A stretch of 10,702 nt of DNA from a virus (Duplodnaviria > Heunggongvirae > Uroviricota > Caudoviricetes). The notes under the pieces are model-generated. The model ran no database searches, had not been told where the DNA came from, and saw only the letters and a list, made by a program, of their open reading frames with translations. The DNA lies in IMG/VR virus record IMGVR_UViG_2693429676_000015; one strand, 5' to 3'. Made by a program: the position numbers and the translations under genes. The first letter of the stretch is position 1. Every line of letters starts with the position of its first letter. This document shows positions 163-10,519 of this stretch, one piece after another.

Positions 163-540
163 TCAAATCCCCAGTGAAGTCACCATTGTCCTGAGAACTT
201 GCAGAACGTCATGATCATAACTTCCATCCAAACCGCGACGGCGAATTGCTTCTCGTATTACCGGAAGCAGTTCGCTGGAAATCTCGGTGCATATTTCACC
301 TGATAATACGCTTGGCTCAAGTGAGAATATTGGTGAACTTACGGTCTTGGTCTCGACAGTTTCAGAGTCAGTGCCAACATTATAAAGCTCAACGAAAGCG
401 GTCTTGATTTTCCGGGCCAGATCTTTTGCTGGCTCGCTTGCAATATCTTTCCCGATTTCTCGCAGCACAGAATGCAATGTATGAGCTGCTGTTTTCTGTA
501 CATCAGACGGTAAATCTTTAAATTCCATCGTCAGCCTCAT
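163..540 (-). CDS. Hypothetical early-left prophage protein (125 aa; 121 aa if it starts at the second ATG, MEFKDLP...)
   Basis: Intact six-frame ORF. Its first ATG overlaps the stop of the upstream small gene (TGATG on the minus strand), suggesting coupling; a GAGG lies 7 nt before the second ATG. No recognisable motif. Confidence 0.5.
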   Translation of the reverse strand: MRLTMEFKDLPSDVQKTAAHTLHSVLREIGKDIASEPAKDLARKIKTAFVELYNVGTDSETVETKTVSSPIFSLEPSVLSGEICTEISSELLPVIREAIRRRGLDGSYDHDVLQVLRTMVTSLGI

Positions 541-692
541 CAGTCAGTGTTTCTGGCTAACCAGCAACGCGCGCCAGATTCGGTTTTAAACGTTTTGCTT
601 TTGGTATACGTCATGGCGGTAAACGTTCCATCCTGGTTAGGGAACACGCCGCACACCAGAGATTCGTTGTTGCCAAGATCGATAGTATCCAT
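540..692 (-). CDS. Small early-left prophage protein (about 50 aa, MDTIDLGNNESLV...); possibly YdaF-like
   Basis: Internal ATG at 692-690 is preceded by a good Shine-Dalgarno (aaggggaaatGAGGtcagcATG on the minus strand). The longer 68-aa ORF from 746 has no RBS. Position (first gene of the leftward operon next to the operators) fits a lambdoid early-left gene. Family is a guess. Confidence 0.45.
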   Translation of the reverse strand: MDTIDLGNNESLVCGVFPNQDGTFTAMTYTKSKTFKTESGARCWLARNTD

Positions 693-859: not shown

Positions 860-930
860 TTGACGCCTGAAACAATAGCATCATTATTTTTTTTTGATGT
901 AAATAGCATCGCTATTGTTTTTTGTTGGGG
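860..930. promoter_or_regulatory. OL-like operator/promoter region with two repressor-site candidates (874-888 AATAGCATCATTATT; 902-916 AATAGCATCGCTATT)
   Basis: Two 15-bp sites of form AATAGC-N3-GCTATT (902-916 is a perfect 6+3+6 palindrome), 28 bp centre to centre. The same motif recurs in the repressor/cro intergenic region at 2013-2027 and 2038-2052. A TTGACG (861-866) and T-rich tracts are nearby. Promoter elements are not confidently placed. Confidence 0.5.
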
Positions 931-956
931 CAAGAAAAAACCACCCTAAGGTGGTT
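925..956 (-). terminator. Rho-independent terminator for the leftward repressor-antitoxin-toxin transcript
   Basis: Stem AACCACC (939-945) and GGTGGTT (950-956) with loop CTAA. On the minus strand the hairpin is followed by TTTTTTCTTG. It lies 17 bp downstream of the toxin stop at 973. Confidence 0.5.
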
Positions 957-972
957 CTGTCGGCGGGAATAA

Positions 973-1263
973 TTAACTGTTTTTGCCTGGATACTGTCTT
1001 CGAGAATGCACAATATTTACTACTTCTATGCTTGATGCTGTTACTCGGTAAAGGATGATGTAGTTAGGATGAGTTACAATTTCACGAAGACCAAGAACTC
1101 GCTCGCTTGGAGGATACAGGTAAGGATGCTCTGTGAGCGGCAAAACGGATGTTTCAATTCGAATTTTCATTCTGCGTGCTGCCGCGGGATTTTCTTTAGC
1201 TATGTAGGCTACGATCTGGCGCAAATCATCACGAGCAGATGGTAGCCATAAAACGGGTAACAT
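973..1263 (-). CDS. parE: ParE/RelE-family type II toxin (96 aa)
   Basis: Size and N-terminal sequence (MLPVLWLPSARDDLRQIVAYIAKENPAAA...) are typical of ParE/RelE toxins. Start ATG overlaps the stop of the upstream antitoxin ORF by 1 nt (TAATG). Follows a repressor-antitoxin pair as in paaR-paaA-parE modules. Confidence 0.75.
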   Translation of the reverse strand: MLPVLWLPSARDDLRQIVAYIAKENPAAARRMKIRIETSVLPLTEHPYLYPPSERVLGLREIVTHPNYIILYRVTASSIEVVNIVHSRRQYPGKNS

Positions 1264-1457
1264 TATTCACCTCTGTGAGTTGCAGCAGCAATTTGGGCAA
1301 TAATTTGTTCCATTTCCGCCATTACCTCATCATGCGGAATCGCCGGGCGGGGATCCGCGAGGCTTGCTGCTACTTTGGCCCGCAGCCATTCGTTGTAACT
1401 ATTTTCTTGCTCAACTGTCTCAAATTCTGAAACCATTGGGGAAAGGACTGTACTCAT
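1263..1457 (-). CDS. paaA: PaaA-like antitoxin (64 aa), partner of ParE
   Basis: Small acidic protein (MSTVLSPMVSEFETVEQENSYNEWLRAKVAASLADPRPAIPHDEV...) that strongly recalls the PaaA2 antitoxin of E. coli O157:H7 (from memory). A GAGGAG lies 8 nt upstream of the ATG, and it is translationally coupled to the toxin. Confidence 0.65.
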   Translation of the reverse strand: MSTVLSPMVSEFETVEQENSYNEWLRAKVAASLADPRPAIPHDEVMAEMEQIIAQIAAATHRGE

Positions 1458-1476
1458 TTTACATATCTCCTCTGAT

Positions 1477-1977
1477 TTAGGCGCGACGGCCTTTTTGTGC
1501 AGCTAACCACCGCGCAACCGTACGATCCATTGATTCTTTTTTATCTTTCATCTCCTGAAGCATGTGTTCTTGATCTTCTTTCGGAAAAGCTCTGAACGTA
1601 TGGATTAAATCTCGTTCCATCGGCTCTACGGCAAACGGTAGTTCATCCTCTGTTTGTTCTGTGTCTGCTGGTAATGCGACTATGTTATCTTGCTGTGGTT
1701 CTCGACAATACATCCTTGCAATTTGCAGCAAATCTACCATGTCTGGCCTGATTGACTCAGGGGGAACTTTCAGTAAGCCAGCAAACTTTAGAACAGCCTC
1801 AAGGTTTAGTGGGGTTTGACCATTTAGGTAGTGACTTACCGCCCCTTGTGTTGAAAACCCCATAATTTCCGCCGCACGTTCCTGAGTCAATCCCAACTGA
1901 GATTTCTTTGCCATCCAGATTTCTTTCAGTCTTCTGGCGGCGTTGAGGTCGGTGTCTGACAATGATTTTCTTTTCAT
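1477..1977 (-). CDS. paaR: CI-like/PaaR-like HTH (XRE-family) repressor, 166 aa from ATG at 1977 (the ORF track extends to a GTG at 2007)
   Basis: N-terminal HTH (LTQERAAEIMGFSTQGAVSHYLNGQTPLNLEAVLKFAGLLKV). Divergent from a Cro-like gene across an operator-bearing intergenic region. First gene of a three-gene operon with the antitoxin and toxin. No S24 peptidase motif is evident in the C-terminus. Confidence 0.75.
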   Translation of the reverse strand: MKRKSLSDTDLNAARRLKEIWMAKKSQLGLTQERAAEIMGFSTQGAVSHYLNGQTPLNLEAVLKFAGLLKVPPESIRPDMVDLLQIARMYCREPQQDNIVALPADTEQTEDELPFAVEPMERDLIHTFRAFPKEDQEHMLQEMKDKKESMDRTVARWLAAQKGRRA

Positions 1978-2088
1978 ACATCCAATTCTAATAAGATTGC
2001 TAATCACTTTGAAATAGCATCACTATTTACTTTTAAAAATAACAGTGCTATTAATTATGCATTGGTAACACATCACATAGGGCGGATT
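1978..2088. promoter_or_regulatory. OR-like divergent promoter/operator region between the repressor and the cro-like gene
   Basis: AT-rich 111-bp intergenic region with two copies of the OL motif: 2013-2027 AATAGCATCACTATT and 2038-2052 AATAACAGTGCTATT, 25 bp centre to centre. Confidence 0.55.
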
Positions 2089-2352
2089 ATGAATCTTGGA
2101 GAATATTTGCATCATTTTCATATAACCCAGAGTTCATTTGCTGAGATTGTTGGCGCATCCCAAGGGATGGTCAGCCACGTTATAACGGGGCGTGCAAAAC
2201 TTACAGGAGAAAAAATATTACGTTGGTGTGAAGCAACGGGATGGGTGGTGACCCCACATGAGATTGACAGTAAAACCTACCCCAACCCAACTGACGGCTT
2301 GCCTGCTGAGTTTCAGGCTAACACACAACCATCGGCGGGGGTTGATTCATGA
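2089..2352 (+). CDS. Cro/YdaS-like small HTH regulator (87 aa from ATG 2089; the ORF track starts at a TTG at 2062)
   Basis: HTH segment (QSSFAEIVGASQGMVSHVITGRAKLTGEKILRWCEATG). AGGG Shine-Dalgarno 7 nt upstream of the ATG. Divergent to the repressor. Its stop overlaps the next gene's start (ATGA at 2349-2352). Confidence 0.65.
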   Translation: MNLGEYLHHFHITQSSFAEIVGASQGMVSHVITGRAKLTGEKILRWCEATGWVVTPHEIDSKTYPNPTDGLPAEFQANTQPSAGVDS

Positions 2353-2774
2353 AAATCAAGCATGAACACATCCGCATGGCGATGAAAGCCTGGGCGCATC
2401 CGGACGGTGAAAAAGTTCCGGCAGCTGAAATAACCAGGGTTTATTTCGAACTGGGAATGACGTTTCCGGTTCTGCATAACGACAGCAAGCACAACACGCT
2501 TTATCTCAACACCCAAAAGATTTTCCGTTGGCTGGATAAAGACACCCCTGACGCTGTTGAAAAAATTCAGGCGTTGTTACCTGCGATCGAAAGGGCAATG
2601 CCACCTCCGCTGGTGGCTCGAATGCGCAGCCACAGTTCAGCTTATTTTCGGGAACTGGTGGAGACGCATGAACGACTGGTGAGAGACGCTGATGATTTTG
2701 TCGCAGTGGCAATCGCCGGTTTCAATCAGATGAACCGTGGTGGCCCGGCAGGAAATGCTGTGGCAGTACATTGA
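2349..2774 (+). CDS. YdaT-like protein (141 aa), possible CII-like regulator of the Rac-type immunity module
   Basis: Starts MKIKHEHI..., which I recall as the N-terminus of Rac-prophage YdaT; the length (about 140 aa) and position directly after the Cro/YdaS-like gene also match. Translationally coupled to the upstream gene. Confidence 0.6.
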   Translation: MKIKHEHIRMAMKAWAHPDGEKVPAAEITRVYFELGMTFPVLHNDSKHNTLYLNTQKIFRWLDKDTPDAVEKIQALLPAIERAMPPPLVARMRSHSSAYFRELVETHERLVRDADDFVAVAIAGFNQMNRGGPAGNAVAVH

Positions 2775-5410: not shown

Positions 5411-5425
5411 TTGCCGGGGGCGCTT

Positions 5426-5636
5426 ATGGCAAAAGTATTTACACAGGAAGAGCGGGAAAAAATTAAGGGGCAGGTTGTTGAACTCGTACGCCAGAGTGGG
5501 CGCGAGACGTTACGACAACTGGAAGCTAAAACCGGGGCGACAAGATATTTAATAAGCGTTCTCGCCAGAGAGCTGGTTGCCAGTGGGGATGTATACAACT
5601 CTGGCTACGGGTTATTCCCGTCTGAACAGGCTCGTA
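5426..5636 (+). pseudogene. 5' portion of a phage gene (MAKVFTQEEREKIKGQVVELVRQSG...), interrupted at the N at 5637
   Basis: ATG at 5426 with a G-rich Shine-Dalgarno. Positions 5446-5636 are identical to 6577-6767 (copy 3). After the N at 5637 the sequence switches to the antisense of an IS3-family orfA. Confidence 0.4.
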
Positions 5637-5637
5637 N

Positions 5638-5993
5638 TTTTTCAGCGACTCCTGTGCAAAATACGCTGTTGCTTTTTTTAATATATCTCGCTCAAGGCGA
5701 GCTTCATTTAACGCCTTACGCAGTTGCAGAATTTCAGATTCCAGTTCAGCCACCGTGCGGGAACCAGGAGTACCGAGCCCTTTTCTGGCGGCGGTAACCC
5801 ATTGTCCTAAAGTGCCTTCAGGAAGAGATAATCGGGAAGCGCCTTCACTGATCGAAAGTTGATTTTCAGGAACCGTTCTGACAGCTTCGGCTTTGAACTC
5901 TTTAGAGTAACGTTGGGTTTTTCTGCTCATTATTAGCTCCTTCTGATGCCATTCTATTTCAGGAAGGAGTGTCCGTTAAACTCAGGCTACCTC
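5638..5993 (-). mobile_element. IS3-family insertion sequence fragment (left end plus N-terminal part of orfA; IS600-like from memory)
   Basis: Minus-strand ORF MSRKTQRYSKEFKAEAVRTVPENQLSISEGASRLSLPEGTLGQWVTAARKGLG...LERDILKKATAYFAQESLK is a typical IS3-family OrfA (HTH plus leucine zipper). The element end reads TGAGGTAGCC... on the minus strand near 5993. It is truncated at the N at 5637. Confidence 0.7.
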
Positions 5994-6384
5994 AAAAATT
6001 AAAGGGCAGGTTGTTGAACTTGTACGTCTGAGCGGTCGCGAGACGTTGCGGCAACTGGAAGCCAAGACAGGTGCGACAAGATATCTGATGAGTGTTCTCG
6101 CCAGAGAGCTGGTTGCCAGTGGCGATGTATACAACTCTGGTTACGGGTTATTCCCGTCTGAACAGGCGCGTAAGGACTGGCAAAACGCCCGCAAAAAACT
6201 CTCAAGGGCAAATCTGAAGAAACCATCTGTGGTTGATCCTGACCTTATCTGGTCATTACCAGACGGAGAAATACGCCGCTACGACAGGCGTCAAAACATA
6301 ATCTGTAGCGAGTGCCGGAAGAGCGAAGCTATGCAGCGTGTACTGGCTTTCTATCAGGGTAATTTTCAGAAGGTGCTGTTGTGA
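5994..6384 (+). pseudogene. 5'-truncated divergent paralogue of the same phage gene (copy 2), preceded by the IS3-family end
   Basis: Aligns to copy 1 and copy 3 from ...KIKGQVVEL to the stop, with scattered nucleotide differences (roughly 5-8% by eye) and a few amino-acid changes. No start codon, because the IS end abuts it. Confidence 0.5.
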
Positions 6385-6456
6385 GCCAAATTAACAATCG
6401 GAACTTCGTGAAGAGAAAGCATAATCCAAAATCTGAATAATTAAGTTCAGCACTGT

Positions 6457-6571
6457 GGTGATGCTGCCAACTTACTGATTTAGTGTATGATGGTGTTTTT
6501 GAGGTGCTCCAGTGGCTTCTGTTTCTATCAGCTGTCCCTCCTGTTCAGCTACTGACGGGGTGGTGCGTAAC
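6457..6571 (+). mobile_element. insA: IS1 left-end fragment (inverted repeat plus the first 20 codons of insA), truncated by the N run
   Basis: ggtgatgctgccaacttactgatttagtgtatgatgg... and the encoded MASVSISCPSCSATDGVVRN match the IS1 left end and InsA N-terminus as I recall them. The sequence stops at NNNNN (6572-6576). Confidence 0.8.
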
Positions 6572-6576
6572 NNNNN
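6572..6576. other. Run of 5 N (assembly gap or scaffold join); a single N also occurs at 5637
   Basis: Literal n characters in the sequence. Confidence 0.95.
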
Positions 6577-6979
6577 GGAAGAGCGGGAAAAAATTAAGGG
6601 GCAGGTTGTTGAACTCGTACGCCAGAGTGGGCGCGAGACGTTACGACAACTGGAAGCTAAAACCGGGGCGACAAGATATTTAATAAGCGTTCTCGCCAGA
6701 GAGCTGGTTGCCAGTGGGGATGTATACAACTCTGGCTACGGGTTATTCCCGTCTGAACAGGCTCGTAAGGACTGGCAAAACGCCCGCAAAAAACTCTCGA
6801 GGGCAAAGCTGAAGAAACCATCTGTGGTTGATCCGGACCTTATCTGGTCATTACCAGACGGAGAAATACGCCGCTACGACAGACATCAGAACATAATCTG
6901 TCGCGAGTGCCGGAAGAGTGAAGTTATGCAGCGTGTACCGGCTTTCTATCAGGGTGATTTTCAGGAGGCGGTACTGTGA
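6577..6979 (+). CDS. 3' portion (copy 3) of the phage gene seen at 5426; with copy 1 it would encode a protein of about 140 aa with a winged-helix-like segment and a CxxC motif
   Basis: Positions 6577-6767 are identical to 5446-5636. Reading frame is open to the TGA at 6977-6979. The ORF-track product 6512..6979 is a chimera with the InsA N-terminus across the N run. Confidence 0.5.
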
Positions 6980-7607: not shown

Positions 7608-9440
7608 ATGGCCCGCATGTTTGATACATTAGGATTTTACATTATGAATGTGCAACATTTTGATTTTTTTACAGATAATGAGTTTTCTAATCTGGAAAGA
7701 TATCAAACTTGTAAAGCCATGGCCAAAGGTTATGCGGGCAATTACAAAACCGGGCAGTCAAGGTTGATGCATGCCCGCTCATACTGCTTCAGCATCGTAG
7801 CTGCATATTGGGATACCCTTGCAAAAAAGCAAAAAAGCAGCATTAAAATGAGGGCAGTACCGCACACTGTTTACATAGAAGACATTCCATGTGATGCACG
7901 CGAGCTCGCTGAACGAACAGGTGAGCTTATTGCTCAATTTCCGGCGGAGGACGCTGGATATCTGATTGGGTCAATTTATACGGTAATGCTGCCATCCGCT
8001 TACCGTTCGGAATTGGGGGCTTACTATACCCCCCCACCTTTGGTAGCGCGTCTCTTGGACCTGGCTGAAAAGTCTGGTGTTGATTTTTCTCATGCATCGG
8101 TTATTGATCCTGCGTGTGGTGGCGGTGCATTTTTGGCACCAGTAGCCATTCGAATGTTAAAAAAAGACAAGGGGTCTTCCCCTGAATGGATGTTGAGGAG
8201 AATCAGTCGTCGTTTAAAGGGGATAGAAATCGATCCATTTGCGGCTTGGATGAGTTTGGTATTGCTCGAATCTGTACTAATGCCACTATGTGTAAAGGTA
8301 AAACGTAGATTGCCTGAAGATACAATTATTGTTGCTGATGCGCTTCAGCAAGATAAATTTTCTGGTTATGATCTTGTGGTAGGGAATCCGCCTTACGGAC
8401 GTGTCACTCTCGATATTAAAACGAGAGAAAAATATTCTCGTTCGTTATTTGGTCATGCAAATCTATATGGATTGTTCACCGACTTAGCTGTTCGCATGGT
8501 TAAAGAGAAAACAGGAGTTATTGCATTTCTTACGCCAACTTCTTTTCTTGGTGGGCAGTATTTCACCGCGCTGCGAACCCTTTTGACCGAAAAAACTACT
8601 CCGTATGCCCTTGATTTCGTCACTGACAGGGATGGGGTCTTTGACGATGTTCTCCAGGAAACAATGTTGACAGCATTCAAGGCGGGAGAACATAAAGTTC
8701 GGGCCCAGGTATCCTCACTTGTCCCTAAGGGGTTGAACAAAGCAAAAATTGAGAAAATAGGTAATGTTGATATAGAAAAAGGTGGAGCAACGTGGCTTTT
8801 GCCACGCGTTAAAGATGATGCCTGTTTTCTTAATGTATTAAAACAGATGTCTACGCGTTTAGCTGATCTGGGATACTCAGTCTCTACAGGTCAGTTAGTC
8901 TGGAATCGATTTAAGTCGCAGTTGCGTACGACGAAAGGAAAAAATAGCTACCCATTAGTCTGGGCGGAATCAATAACTTCAGCTGGTTTTCGTTTTAGTG
9001 CAGACAGAAAAAATCATGTTCCCTATATCGATATAACCCCACAACAGGGTTTCCTTGTGACAAAATCTGAATGTGTGCTTGTTCAGCGGACAACATCGAA
9101 GGAACAGGACAGAAGGATTTTAGCGGCAATTTTACCTCAGGGATTTATAGATGAAACTGGTGGCGTAGTAGTTGAAAACCATATTAATATTGTATATTCA
9201 AACGGATTGTTCTCTGCGGTTCGCCCTGATGTTATTGATATGCTACTTAATTCGCATGTTGTCGATCGGGCGTTCAGGTGTATAAGCGGAAGTGTTGCTG
9301 TTTCGGCCTATGAATTGAATTCAATCCCGTTGCCTTCTCTGGAGCAGGTGATGGAGATTCAATCGTTAATTGATGCTGGCGTCCACAGACGGATTATTGA
9401 GAGAACTATCGCTGGTTTCTATGGAGTGATGATTGCATGA
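7608..9440 (+). CDS. N6-adenine DNA methyltransferase, gamma-class (Eco57I/TaqI-like motif order), 610 aa; start could instead be the ATG at 7643
   Basis: Motif X GAYYTPPPLV (aa 137-146, nt about 8016-8045), motif I IDPACGGGAFL (aa 166-176), motif IV VVGNPPYG (aa 257-264, NPPY at nt 8386-8397), then about 340 aa of C-terminal, presumably target-recognition, sequence. Confidence 0.85.
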   Translation: MARMFDTLGFYIMNVQHFDFFTDNEFSNLERYQTCKAMAKGYAGNYKTGQSRLMHARSYCFSIVAAYWDTLAKKQKSSIKMRAVPHTVYIEDIPCDARELAERTGELIAQFPAEDAGYLIGSIYTVMLPSAYRSELGAYYTPPPLVARLLDLAEKSGVDFSHASVIDPACGGGAFLAPVAIRMLKKDKGSSPEWMLRRISRRLKGIEIDPFAAWMSLVLLESVLMPLCVKVKRRLPEDTIIVADALQQDKFSGYDLVVGNPPYGRVTLDIKTREKYSRSLFGHANLYGLFTDLAVRMVKEKTGVIAFLTPTSFLGGQYFTALRTLLTEKTTPYALDFVTDRDGVFDDVLQETMLTAFKAGEHKVRAQVSSLVPKGLNKAKIEKIGNVDIEKGGATWLLPRVKDDACFLNVLKQMSTRLADLGYSVSTGQLVWNRFKSQLRTTKGKNSYPLVWAESITSAGFRFSADRKNHVPYIDITPQQGFLVTKSECVLVQRTTSKEQDRRILAAILPQGFIDETGGVVVENHINIVYSNGLFSAVRPDVIDMLLNSHVVDRAFRCISGSVAVSAYELNSIPLPSLEQVMEIQSLIDAGVHRRIIERTIAGFYGVMIA

Positions 9441-10519
9441 ATCTGCCTGTTGTTCCCCCATTGAATGTTATCCGGGAAAGATTACAATTAATTTTCCCTG
9501 AAGGGACTGAGAATCGTGGATATTTAATTCGGGAAATAGCTGCAAAAACAATTTTTGTCATGTTTTATGCTGGTGCGGTTGAGGGGCTGGGGCGATGGAT
9601 AAGGCCCAGCCAGGTTGTAAGTATGGGAGATTCGCAGGCTGCTCTTACTGATGATGCGTCCAGAGAAAGCTGGGTAAAGATGACTTTCTCTAAACAAAAG
9701 ATAAGGCCTGCTGATGCATGGTATGCGGAAAATACGCGTGAGCCAATACGTGATGAAACTATAAAAAATGGCCTAATACCTTGCAATGCAATTGTTGAGC
9801 GTAAAGGTATACCCACCACATCCTCTCGTCCTCGTTACAGTTTGAATCGCTCTTTTGCAGCACTCTTTGATGCCGGGCTTGAAGGAGATTCGCTGCTGAG
9901 TGCAATAAGTTCCTGGCAAGAAAATCATTTGAACAAAGCCGCTCTTGCTAGGTTGCGTTTATTGAAATCAGGGGCAGTGATTGCTGCTGATGCCGTAGTC
10001 GTCACTTTCCCAAATGGAGAGAAGAGAACTTTAGCTCCGGGCCCGTCAAGTACAATAGCTAAGGCCGTCATCGAAGTTTTTGCTCCTAATTTTCTTAAGA
10101 ATCCAACTGTGCTCTGGTTGTCTGAATCCGGGAATAAAGTTGTTGCTCAGGATGATGTATTGGCAAAAGCATTGGGGCTGAATATTGATGCCTCAAAAGC
10201 ACTTCCAGATATTATTTTGATTGATTTGGGAGAGGACCGAACGGGTTCGGACATGCTTGTAGTTTTCACTGAAGTAGTTGCGACAGATGGGCCTATAAAC
10301 AGGGAACGAAAAGTTACTCTCACTCATTTGGCTATTGACGCTGGGTTCAGCGAGAAAAATCTTGCATTCCTTACGGCATTTATGGACAGAAGTGCTCTGC
10401 CTTTTAAAAAGGCAATACCAGAATTGGCGTGGGGATCTTATGCATGGTTTGCTTCTGAACCGGAGCACTTAATTGATCTTCGGGATGGTTATCCGGTAAA
10501 GATCAGCCAGAGAAAATGA
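9437..10519 (+). CDS. Putative restriction endonuclease partner of the methyltransferase (360 aa); BsuBI/PstI-like family is a tentative guess
   Basis: Start ATG overlaps the methyltransferase stop (ATGA at 9437-9440), indicating translational coupling. No methyltransferase motifs. Size and context fit a Type II REase. The N-terminal segment (VIRERLQLIFPEGTENRGYLIREIAAKTIFVMFYAGA) resembles what I recall of BsuBI/PstI-family N-termini. There is a possible acidic cluster at LIDLGED...FTEVV. Not verified. Confidence 0.5.
   Translation: MNLPVVPPLNVIRERLQLIFPEGTENRGYLIREIAAKTIFVMFYAGAVEGLGRWIRPSQVVSMGDSQAALTDDASRESWVKMTFSKQKIRPADAWYAENTREPIRDETIKNGLIPCNAIVERKGIPTTSSRPRYSLNRSFAALFDAGLEGDSLLSAISSWQENHLNKAALARLRLLKSGAVIAADAVVVTFPNGEKRTLAPGPSSTIAKAVIEVFAPNFLKNPTVLWLSESGNKVVAQDDVLAKALGLNIDASKALPDIILIDLGEDRTGSDMLVVFTEVVATDGPINRERKVTLTHLAIDAGFSEKNLAFLTAFMDRSALPFKKAIPELAWGSYAWFASEPEHLIDLRDGYPVKISQRK

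Follow-up and report, generated by a model that had tools for sequence, protein, structure and literature searches.

AATAGC-N3-GCTATT palindromes as putative repressor and Cro operators in a defective lambdoid prophage

We studied four 15-bp palindromes of the form AATAGC-N3-GCTATT in a 10,702-nt stretch of tailed-phage DNA (Caudoviricetes; IMG/VR record IMGVR_UViG_2693429676_000015), which as a whole is called the window in the following. Its sequence marks the part of interest as the immunity region of a defective lambdoid prophage, whose host is probably Shigella or E. coli; the encoded repressor is 99-100% identical to Shigella sonnei proteins. We consider it highly probable that the four palindromes are the operators of a lambdoid genetic switch, bound by this repressor and a Cro-like partner. 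The palindromes form a left (OL) and a right (OR) pair, the latter with a weaker neighbour. Mismatches are counted against AATAGC-N3-GCTATT and promoter names are introduced below.

874-888, no strand: OL1, AATAGCATCATTATT, 2 mismatches; equivalent site in relatives
902-916, no strand: OL2, AATAGCATCGCTATT, perfect palindrome; equivalent site in relatives
1990-2004: OR3, AATAAGATTGCTAAT (reverse complement ATTAGCAATCTTATT), putative weak third operator with 3 mismatches, in the spacer and -10 of the predicted promoter PRM
2013-2027, no strand: OR2, AATAGCATCACTATT, 1 mismatch; counterpart in nearly all relatives, where the site begins at -50 relative to the repressor ATG
2038-2052, no strand: OR1, AATAACAGTGCTATT, 1 mismatch; corresponds to the site starting at -75 in relatives

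The genes and the terminator around these sites are as follows, where HTH denotes a helix-turn-helix.

540-692, minus strand: ydfA (Pfam DUF1391, E = 1.3e-28), first gene of the leftward operon served by the predicted promoter PL
932-958, minus strand: intrinsic terminator of the repressor-paaA2-parE2 operon (hairpin 939-958, U-tract 932-938; -15.1 kcal/mol, z = -3.3)
973-1263, minus strand: ParE-family toxin, cargo (Pfam ParE_toxin, E = 1.8e-17)
1263-1457, minus strand: PaaA2-family antitoxin, cargo (Pfam PaaA2, E = 3e-23)
1477-1977, minus strand: repressor, 166 aa (HTH_3), with a lambda-CI-like N-terminal HTH domain and a PaaR2-like C-terminal tail
2089-2352, plus strand: Cro-like (YdaS-like) HTH protein, 87 aa (weak HTH_3 match)
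2349-2774, plus strand: YdaT-family (CII-like) regulator (Pfam YdaT_toxin, E = 5e-9)

One site pair lies in the 111-bp region between the divergent repressor and cro-like genes, which contains OR1, OR2 and the weak OR3. A second set of the same sites (874-916) is located just past the terminator and upstream of leftward ydfA-type genes (ydfA is annotated as such in locus L001), and relatives keep this arrangement. Read leftward, the order is repressor, antitoxin, toxin, terminator, OL pair and ydfA; rightward from the OR pair follow the Cro/YdaS-like protein, the YdaT-family protein and replication genes. This is the gene layout given in the original prediction, and it supports the lambda-type OL/OR architecture proposed there.

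Sequences and coordinates of the four palindromes agree exactly with what had been reported for them. The same holds for the 9-mer AATAGCATC common to three of the four, for the centre-to-centre distances within the pairs (28 bp for OL, 25 bp for OR) and for the distance of about 1.1 kb from pair to pair. Given the base composition of the whole window, only 0.027 sites with at most one mismatch are expected while 3 are found; for at most two mismatches, 5 sites compare to 0.46 expected. None of 3000 first-order Markov simulations of the window reached at least 5 sites with up to two mismatches or at least 3 with up to one, and any site pair 20-30 bp apart occurred in only 1/3000. The single further site of the window with up to two mismatches (6319-6333) is in line with the chance rate. 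As host background, we sampled 150 kb of the chromosome of an E. coli strain with a near-identical module. Here, 10 two-mismatch sites (about 1 per 15 kb) are found, none with at most one mismatch and no pairs, and 50 kb across the prophage of the same strain hold only the four immunity-region sites and two isolated two-mismatch sites. That is, no similar motif density is seen elsewhere in the sampled DNA (window, 150 kb of chromosome, 50 kb of prophage region).

An origin of the palindromes by chance, i.e., as near-palindromes in AT-rich intergenic DNA, can draw on the count at up to three mismatches, which is not significant (7 sites vs. 4.5 expected), and on the spurious pairs that AT-rich genomes yield. 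Since the stricter counts are reached by no simulation and since the sites recur at the same positions relative to the repressor start codon in dozens of divergent loci, we regard the probability of this explanation as close to nil. A role of the 15-mers as hairpin or terminator was likewise rejected as unlikely, given that their arms are AT-rich and of 6 bp and that the real terminator is found at 932-958.

On the sequence, OR appears to be tripartite, i.e., it has a weaker but conserved third site (1990-2004) that was missing from the original prediction. Relatives keep it as ATTAG(C/T)AA..TATT, 23 bp from OR2, and a site of the OR3 type with at most two mismatches is found near -27 in many distant loci.

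With regard to the proteins, residues 2-81 of the repressor match the N-terminal domain of the lambda repressor (PDB 1lmb, E = 2.9e-9). Its tail is 56% identical to the PaaR2 C-terminus (64 aa, E = 6e-23), while its N-terminus does not align with PaaR2. Pfam gives HTH_3 and HTH_31 only, with no S24 C-terminal peptidase domain, such that RecA-mediated self-cleavage is not expected. Judged by its domains, the repressor is not a member of the lambda CI/LexA-type (S24) family, though its DNA-binding domain belongs there. It heads an operon with paaA2-like and parE-like genes within an immunity region, as PaaR2-type regulators of three-component systems do. Relatives of 244-255 aa (P0018, P0020, P0022; loci L007, L011, L015) carry tandem HTHs, first a lambda-CI-like and then a PaaR2-like one, followed by a PaaR2-type tail. 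The 244-aa relatives thus correspond to a CI-like domain plus a complete PaaR2-like protein, so that the 166-aa form resembles a domain replacement: relative to the two-HTH proteins, its second HTH looks deleted or replaced. In the phage collection, no sequenced phage has a repressor more than about 31% identical, the best matches being lambda-type CI proteins; a characterised phage with this immunity type was thus not found there.

Repressor and Cro-like protein are homologous across the HTH (38% identity, E = 5e-7) and show near-identical recognition helices (TQGAVSHY in the repressor, SQGMVSHV in Cro). All repressors across the motif-bearing range begin their recognition helix with T-Q-G, and the Cro helix SQGMVSHV is present in all motif-bearing loci and differs in the heteroimmune prophages L002 and L003. 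These similarities bear on the question whether only one of the two proteins reads the sites while the other regulator uses different, so far unrecognised sequences. In favour of such a division of labour is prophage CP-933P of E. coli O157:H7, which has two overlapping repeat types and for which the exact PaaR2 and YdaS targets were left open (PMC8630535). Here, in contrast, the helices are nearly the same, both proteins accompany the motif in every locus with an identified cro gene, and an inverted-repeat search of OR and OL found no second repeat family. We thus rate a single reader as very unlikely and maintain that both proteins most likely read the palindromes.

Next, we turn to heteroimmune prophages. 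Compared to the E. coli prophage L003, which has the same flanks, the homology of the window ends at 862 and restarts at 2342. These breakpoints imply that the exchanged cassette contains both site pairs. Compared to the CP-933P-type L002, only 1025-1578 is conserved inside 862-2342, a stretch with the toxin-antitoxin (TA) genes and the C-terminal part of the repressor. Between heteroimmune prophages, the two operator regions are replaced jointly with cro and the N-terminal part of the repressor. No AATAGC-type sites are found at the equivalent positions of L002 and L003, which have other repeats instead. On the left, the cassette ends only a few bases from the predicted PL start, and its right boundary (2342) coincides with a further feature:

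2342-2359, no strand: perfect YdaT (CII-like) operator TTGATTCATGAAAATCAA at the cro/ydaT junction, extending across the cro stop and the ydaT start

The motif is co-inherited with the DNA-binding domains of repressor and Cro and not with the flanking DNA.

In order to relate proteins to the motif, loci were fetched by repressor homology, never by the motif. In all repressor-selected loci, the motif is found at about -75 and/or -50 from the repressor start, and at both positions in most. The closer set (L004-L015) covers 47-79% full-length repressor identity and carries PaaA2/ParE2, HipA_2 with DUF3037, HigBA or no cargo. All of its members have a site pair whose sites begin at about -75 and -50 relative to the repressor ATG and no additional sites within about 5.5 kb, apart from a clear second pair (spacing 24-26 bp) at a distance of 0.9-3.0 kb downstream. 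Only the most distant L009/L010 show one detectable downstream site in place of this pair. The viral loci L188-L219 (63-71% identity over the N-terminal 62 aa; alignment-based scan) resemble this set less strictly: L192 is the only distinct locus that lacks a site at about -49, most loci have a further site near -74 as well as a downstream pair, and some show ATTAGC half-site variants. A strict peptide-pattern scan of genome contigs found no repressor relative, its patterns being too strict.

The variety of cargo also bears on the idea that the PaaA2-ParE2 complex uses the palindromes to regulate its own operon, in the manner of classical type II TA systems. The sites do lie on either side of the TA operon, and binding to palindromes in the promoter of their own gene is common among antitoxins. 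Nevertheless, the same pairs are found in relatives without PaaA2/ParE2, CP-933P keeps the TA genes without the motif, and regulation in the paaR2 system is assigned to the third component (PMC8630535). TA autoregulation is therefore barely credible here compared to operators of the phage switch.

For the reverse direction, we scanned one genome per species as well as IMG/VR for AATARC-N3-RYTATT-N10-AATARY-N3-RYTATT, which resulted in 121 loci. A homologue of the repressor N-terminal domain (29-100% identity) is encoded in 79/121, mostly adjoining the pair, with Citrobacter, Rouxiella, Acinetobacter, Marinobacter, Psychrobacter, Collimonas, Pandoraea and Acidithiobacillus among the genera. Three OR sites at about -78, -53 and -28 can be made out in most distant loci, along with a downstream OL pair or triplet. 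About 72 of 5426 complete E. coli genomes contain a near-identical module. Another 70 E. coli genomes, including O104:H4 and O145:H28, carry a 78%-identical sister immunity type (P0009), which is found in none of the O157:H7 genomes listed.

According to the original prediction, the motif defines the immunity specificity of this prophage. This stands in so far as the motif travels with the repressor/Cro DNA-binding domains. It is too narrow with regard to the prophage: since the motif is common to repressors of 29-100% identity from several genera, it denotes a broad specificity group and not this prophage alone. Along with the sites themselves, their non-random placement and the protein homologies, the co-inheritance with two DNA-binding domains is directly observed.

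As a separate observation from the reverse scan, excellent AATAGC-N3-GCTATT pairs 25 bp apart occur in L023, L029, L041, L063, L096, L117, L123 and L135 (Burkholderiales and viral contigs), whose genomes have 51-61% GC; no repressor homologue is encoded in the DNA fetched for these loci. They are probably OL sets of related prophages or targets of a more distant repressor with the same code.

Promoter positions were predicted by a consensus scan for PRM, the promoter of the repressor, and by the conserved register in relatives for PR and PL, the rightward and leftward early promoters. The predicted elements are:

2008-2013, minus strand: PRM -35, TTCAAA, abutting OR2 (promoter scan and relatives)
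1985-1990, minus strand: PRM -10, TAGAAT (promoter scan; geometry kept in relatives)
2026-2031, plus strand: PR -35, TTTACT (read from the sequence; TTGACA or TTGACG in the same register in relatives)
2049-2054, plus strand: PR -10, TATTAA, preceded by TGc, 17 bp after the -35 (read from the sequence)
898-903, minus strand: PL -35, TTTACA, sharing its first TT with the end of OL2 (read from the sequence; TTGACn in the same register in distant relatives)
872-877, minus strand: PL -10, TATTGT, preceded by TGc, in the outer half of OL1 (register kept in relatives)

The predicted PRM has a 17-bp spacer, and since only 7 nt separate its -10 from the repressor ATG at 1977, the repressor mRNA would be leaderless. 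The centre of OR2 is located at about -43 from the predicted PRM start, and OR1 overlaps the predicted PR -10. In relatives, the last TT of site 2 opens the -35 (TTGACA, TTGACG or TTTACx) at PR and PL alike, and beyond a 17-bp spacer the outer half of site 1 gives TGcTATTxx as an extended -10. The fixed 25-bp spacing would be explained by this interlock of site pair and promoter.

Given such an interlock, the repeats might merely be duplicated promoter modules, i.e., PR and PL sharing the same -35/-10 context, and not protein-binding palindromes. The GCTATT half-sites do overlap the predicted -35 and -10 elements, PR and PL are built alike, and the -35/-10 of CP-933P are identical at PR and PL as well (PMC8630535). 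However, the promoter-distal half-sites are conserved equally while the central 3 bp vary, a third site is located on PRM, whose hexamers differ, and the motif switches with the HTH domains although the flanking transcribed DNA is unchanged. We therefore consider mere promoter duplication highly improbable and retain the interpretation as operators that are interlocked with promoters.

Two regions next to the predicted PL are mentioned for completeness. A plus-strand promoter match at 860-887 (TTGACG, 16-bp spacer, CATTAT), which overlaps OL1 and would read rightward, antisense to parE2-paaA2, was treated as chance, as 3 such matches compare to 2.9 expected. On the minus strand, a leader of about 170 nt (693-862) begins within a few bases of the predicted PL start, keeps 90-93% identity across heteroimmune prophages and contains the GC-rich stretch CAACCCACCCCGCCCCACAG. 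A nut-like or other leader role is possible; a search of Rfam gave no RNA family match anywhere in the window.

The spacer of the predicted PL contains a homopolymer run:

887-895, no strand: T9 (A9 on the PL strand), between the PL -35 and -10

The OL spacing of 28 bp results from this run. Relatives have an OL spacing of 24-26 bp, i.e., 28 bp is atypical and peculiar to the expanded run of this window. Correspondingly, the PL spacer measures 20 bp with the run of 9 vs. 17 bp in relatives with A6. The run length is 5 in L092, 6 in L001, L080 and L122, 8 in L074, L077 and L129, and 9 in the window and L133, and prophages that differ in run length are otherwise 98-100% identical. Over 540-2360 of the window (1821 bp), one base of the T-run is the sole difference to L129. 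A homopolymer assembly error is a possible source of these differences. That the A/T tract is a slipped-strand contingency tract, i.e., a phase-variable element within a phage operator, seems to us unlikely. If true, changes in tract length would take the PL spacer from the optimal 17 bp to a non-functional 19-20 bp or back and would also rotate OL1 relative to OL2, such that the leftward early operon and the OL-OR cooperation would be switched on and off heritably in a domesticated prophage.

Binding, promoter positions, activation and looping are what we infer in the following proposal. Repressor dimers would bind AATAGC-N3-GCTATT with one HTH per AATAGC half-site, the three central bases probably not being read. 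Occupation of sites 1 and 2 would occlude both PR (cro, ydaT and replication genes) and PL (leftward ydfA operon), because the site pairs are interlocked with the -35 and -10. OR2, which abuts the PRM -35 and is centred at about -43, could allow autoactivation of PRM in the lambda geometry; in lambda, CI activates PRM from about -43. Lying over the PRM spacer and -10, the weak OR3 could serve autorepression or be the preferred target of Cro. The Cro-like protein most likely competes for the same sites, given its near-identical recognition helix. Finally, the PaaR2-like tail probably mediates assembly into larger complexes, and these could connect OL with OR across the 1.1 kb between them. Such looping is plausible by analogy, and this bridging is the least certain step of the proposal.

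Several points weigh against this interpretation. With its 20-bp spacer, PL may be weak or dead in this window, and the cooperativity of OL1 and OL2 may be altered. PR and PL fall below the threshold of the consensus scan and rest on the conservation of their register in relatives. Furthermore, only two sites are detectable at OL, and with 3 mismatches OR3 is a poor match. For looping and the oligomeric state, we extrapolate from PaaR2 and lambda. The site profile (141 distinct sites), in which the 12 specified positions are conserved while the central 3 bp and the flanks have 0.2-0.6 bits, shows the pattern expected of a symmetric dimer but is inflated at the conserved positions, because the sites were chosen by their similarity to the pattern. 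Finally, 42/121 motif-pair matches of the reverse scan are without a detected repressor homologue. Among the latter, matches in Desulfosporosinus, Clostridia as well as archaeal and giant-virus metagenome-assembled genomes were rejected as AT-rich chance or long unrelated inverted repeats, the one in Desulfosporosinus being such an unrelated long inverted repeat. The others, among them the high-GC Burkholderiales matches, look like genuine OL-type pairs whose repressor probably lies beyond the DNA fetched.

We also compared the immunity region with known systems. Like lambda, it has divergent repressor and cro genes with a tripartite OR, whose spacings are 25 and 23 bp here and 24 and 23 bp in lambda. 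Further shared are a repressor operon with accessory genes and a terminator followed by OL and a predicted PL, an OR2 that abuts the predicted PRM -35, a leaderless repressor mRNA (predicted here) as for lambda cI, and a homologous repressor N-terminal domain with a basic arm (MKRKSL here, STKKKPL in lambda). In contrast to lambda, the operator is a 15-bp core AATAGC-N3-GCTATT and not a 17-bp site of the TATCACCGC type, and the repressor carries a PaaR2-like tail of about 60 aa instead of the S24/LexA-type C-terminal cleavage domain. Moreover, OL has two detectable sites and not three, Cro is an HTH_3 homologue of the repressor and does not have the lambda Cro fold, the role of CII is filled by YdaT, and the OL-OR distance is 1.1 kb compared to about 2.4 kb in lambda.

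For CP-933P, PaaR2, YdaS and YdaT act as analogues of CI, Cro and CII, and PaaR2 operators were located at OR and PL by electrophoretic mobility shift assays, footprinting and reporters (PMC8630535). PaaR2 is reported to be octameric in solution and the paaR2 transcript is leaderless (PMC8630535); the YdaT operator OM, TTGATT-N6-AATCAA, is situated at the ydaS/ydaT junction (PMC9986795). The window shows the same operon order (regulator, paaA2, parE2) between the same flanks (ydfA, ydaT), a DNA identity of about 77% over the TA genes and the regulator C-terminus (with the 56% identical tail given above), an OR plus a PL/OL set, a leaderless geometry, and a YdaT operator that equals OM in sequence and location. 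It differs in the N-terminal HTH, which is lambda-CI-like and not of the PaaR2 type, in the Cro recognition helix, and in the operators, which are inverted repeats with the consensus GTTTAGTAA in CP-933P. No GTTTAGTAA-type sites are found in OR or OL of the window, nor AATAGC sites in CP-933P. Since their operators differ, the two are expected to be heteroimmune.

Phage 434 has a homologous, all-helical pair of HTH repressor and Cro with near-identical recognition helices, which use the same short dyads with an uncontacted centre. Its operator is ACAA-N6-TTGT and its repressor has a cleavable C-terminal domain. The repressor/Cro pair of the window resembles that of 434 in its similar helices while proteins and operator sequence differ.

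Literature searches on the motif and on paaR1/paaA1 returned no description of this operator. The immunity type is an uncharacterised instance of the lambda paradigm, which is not overturned by it. What is supplied for this type, of which our searches gave no characterisation, is an operator code, AATAGC-N3-GCTATT, that would be read by a T-Q-G recognition helix. The same code and geometry are found with repressor domains of 29-40% identity in Acinetobacter, Marinobacter, Psychrobacter and Burkholderiales, which allows the prediction of cross-immunity groups and the annotation of switches from sequence alone. In addition, the repressor represents a natural domain swap, i.e., a lambda-CI-type DNA-binding domain on a PaaR2-type tail, and offers a convenient system in which to follow the exchange of immunity specificity with the oligomerisation module and TA cargo staying in place.

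Two further observations concern the window outside the immunity region. At 5411-6979, three partial or duplicated DUF977 copies are broken by an orfA fragment of an IS3-family transposase (5641-5930, minus strand), and the same part contains runs of N (5637, 6572-6576); this suggests a rearrangement mediated by the insertion sequence or an assembly collapse in a defective prophage. Furthermore, 7608-10519 holds a type II restriction-modification pair as prophage cargo, in which an Eco57I/N6-adenine-type methyltransferase (610 aa) overlaps a BsuBI/PstI-family endonuclease (360 aa).

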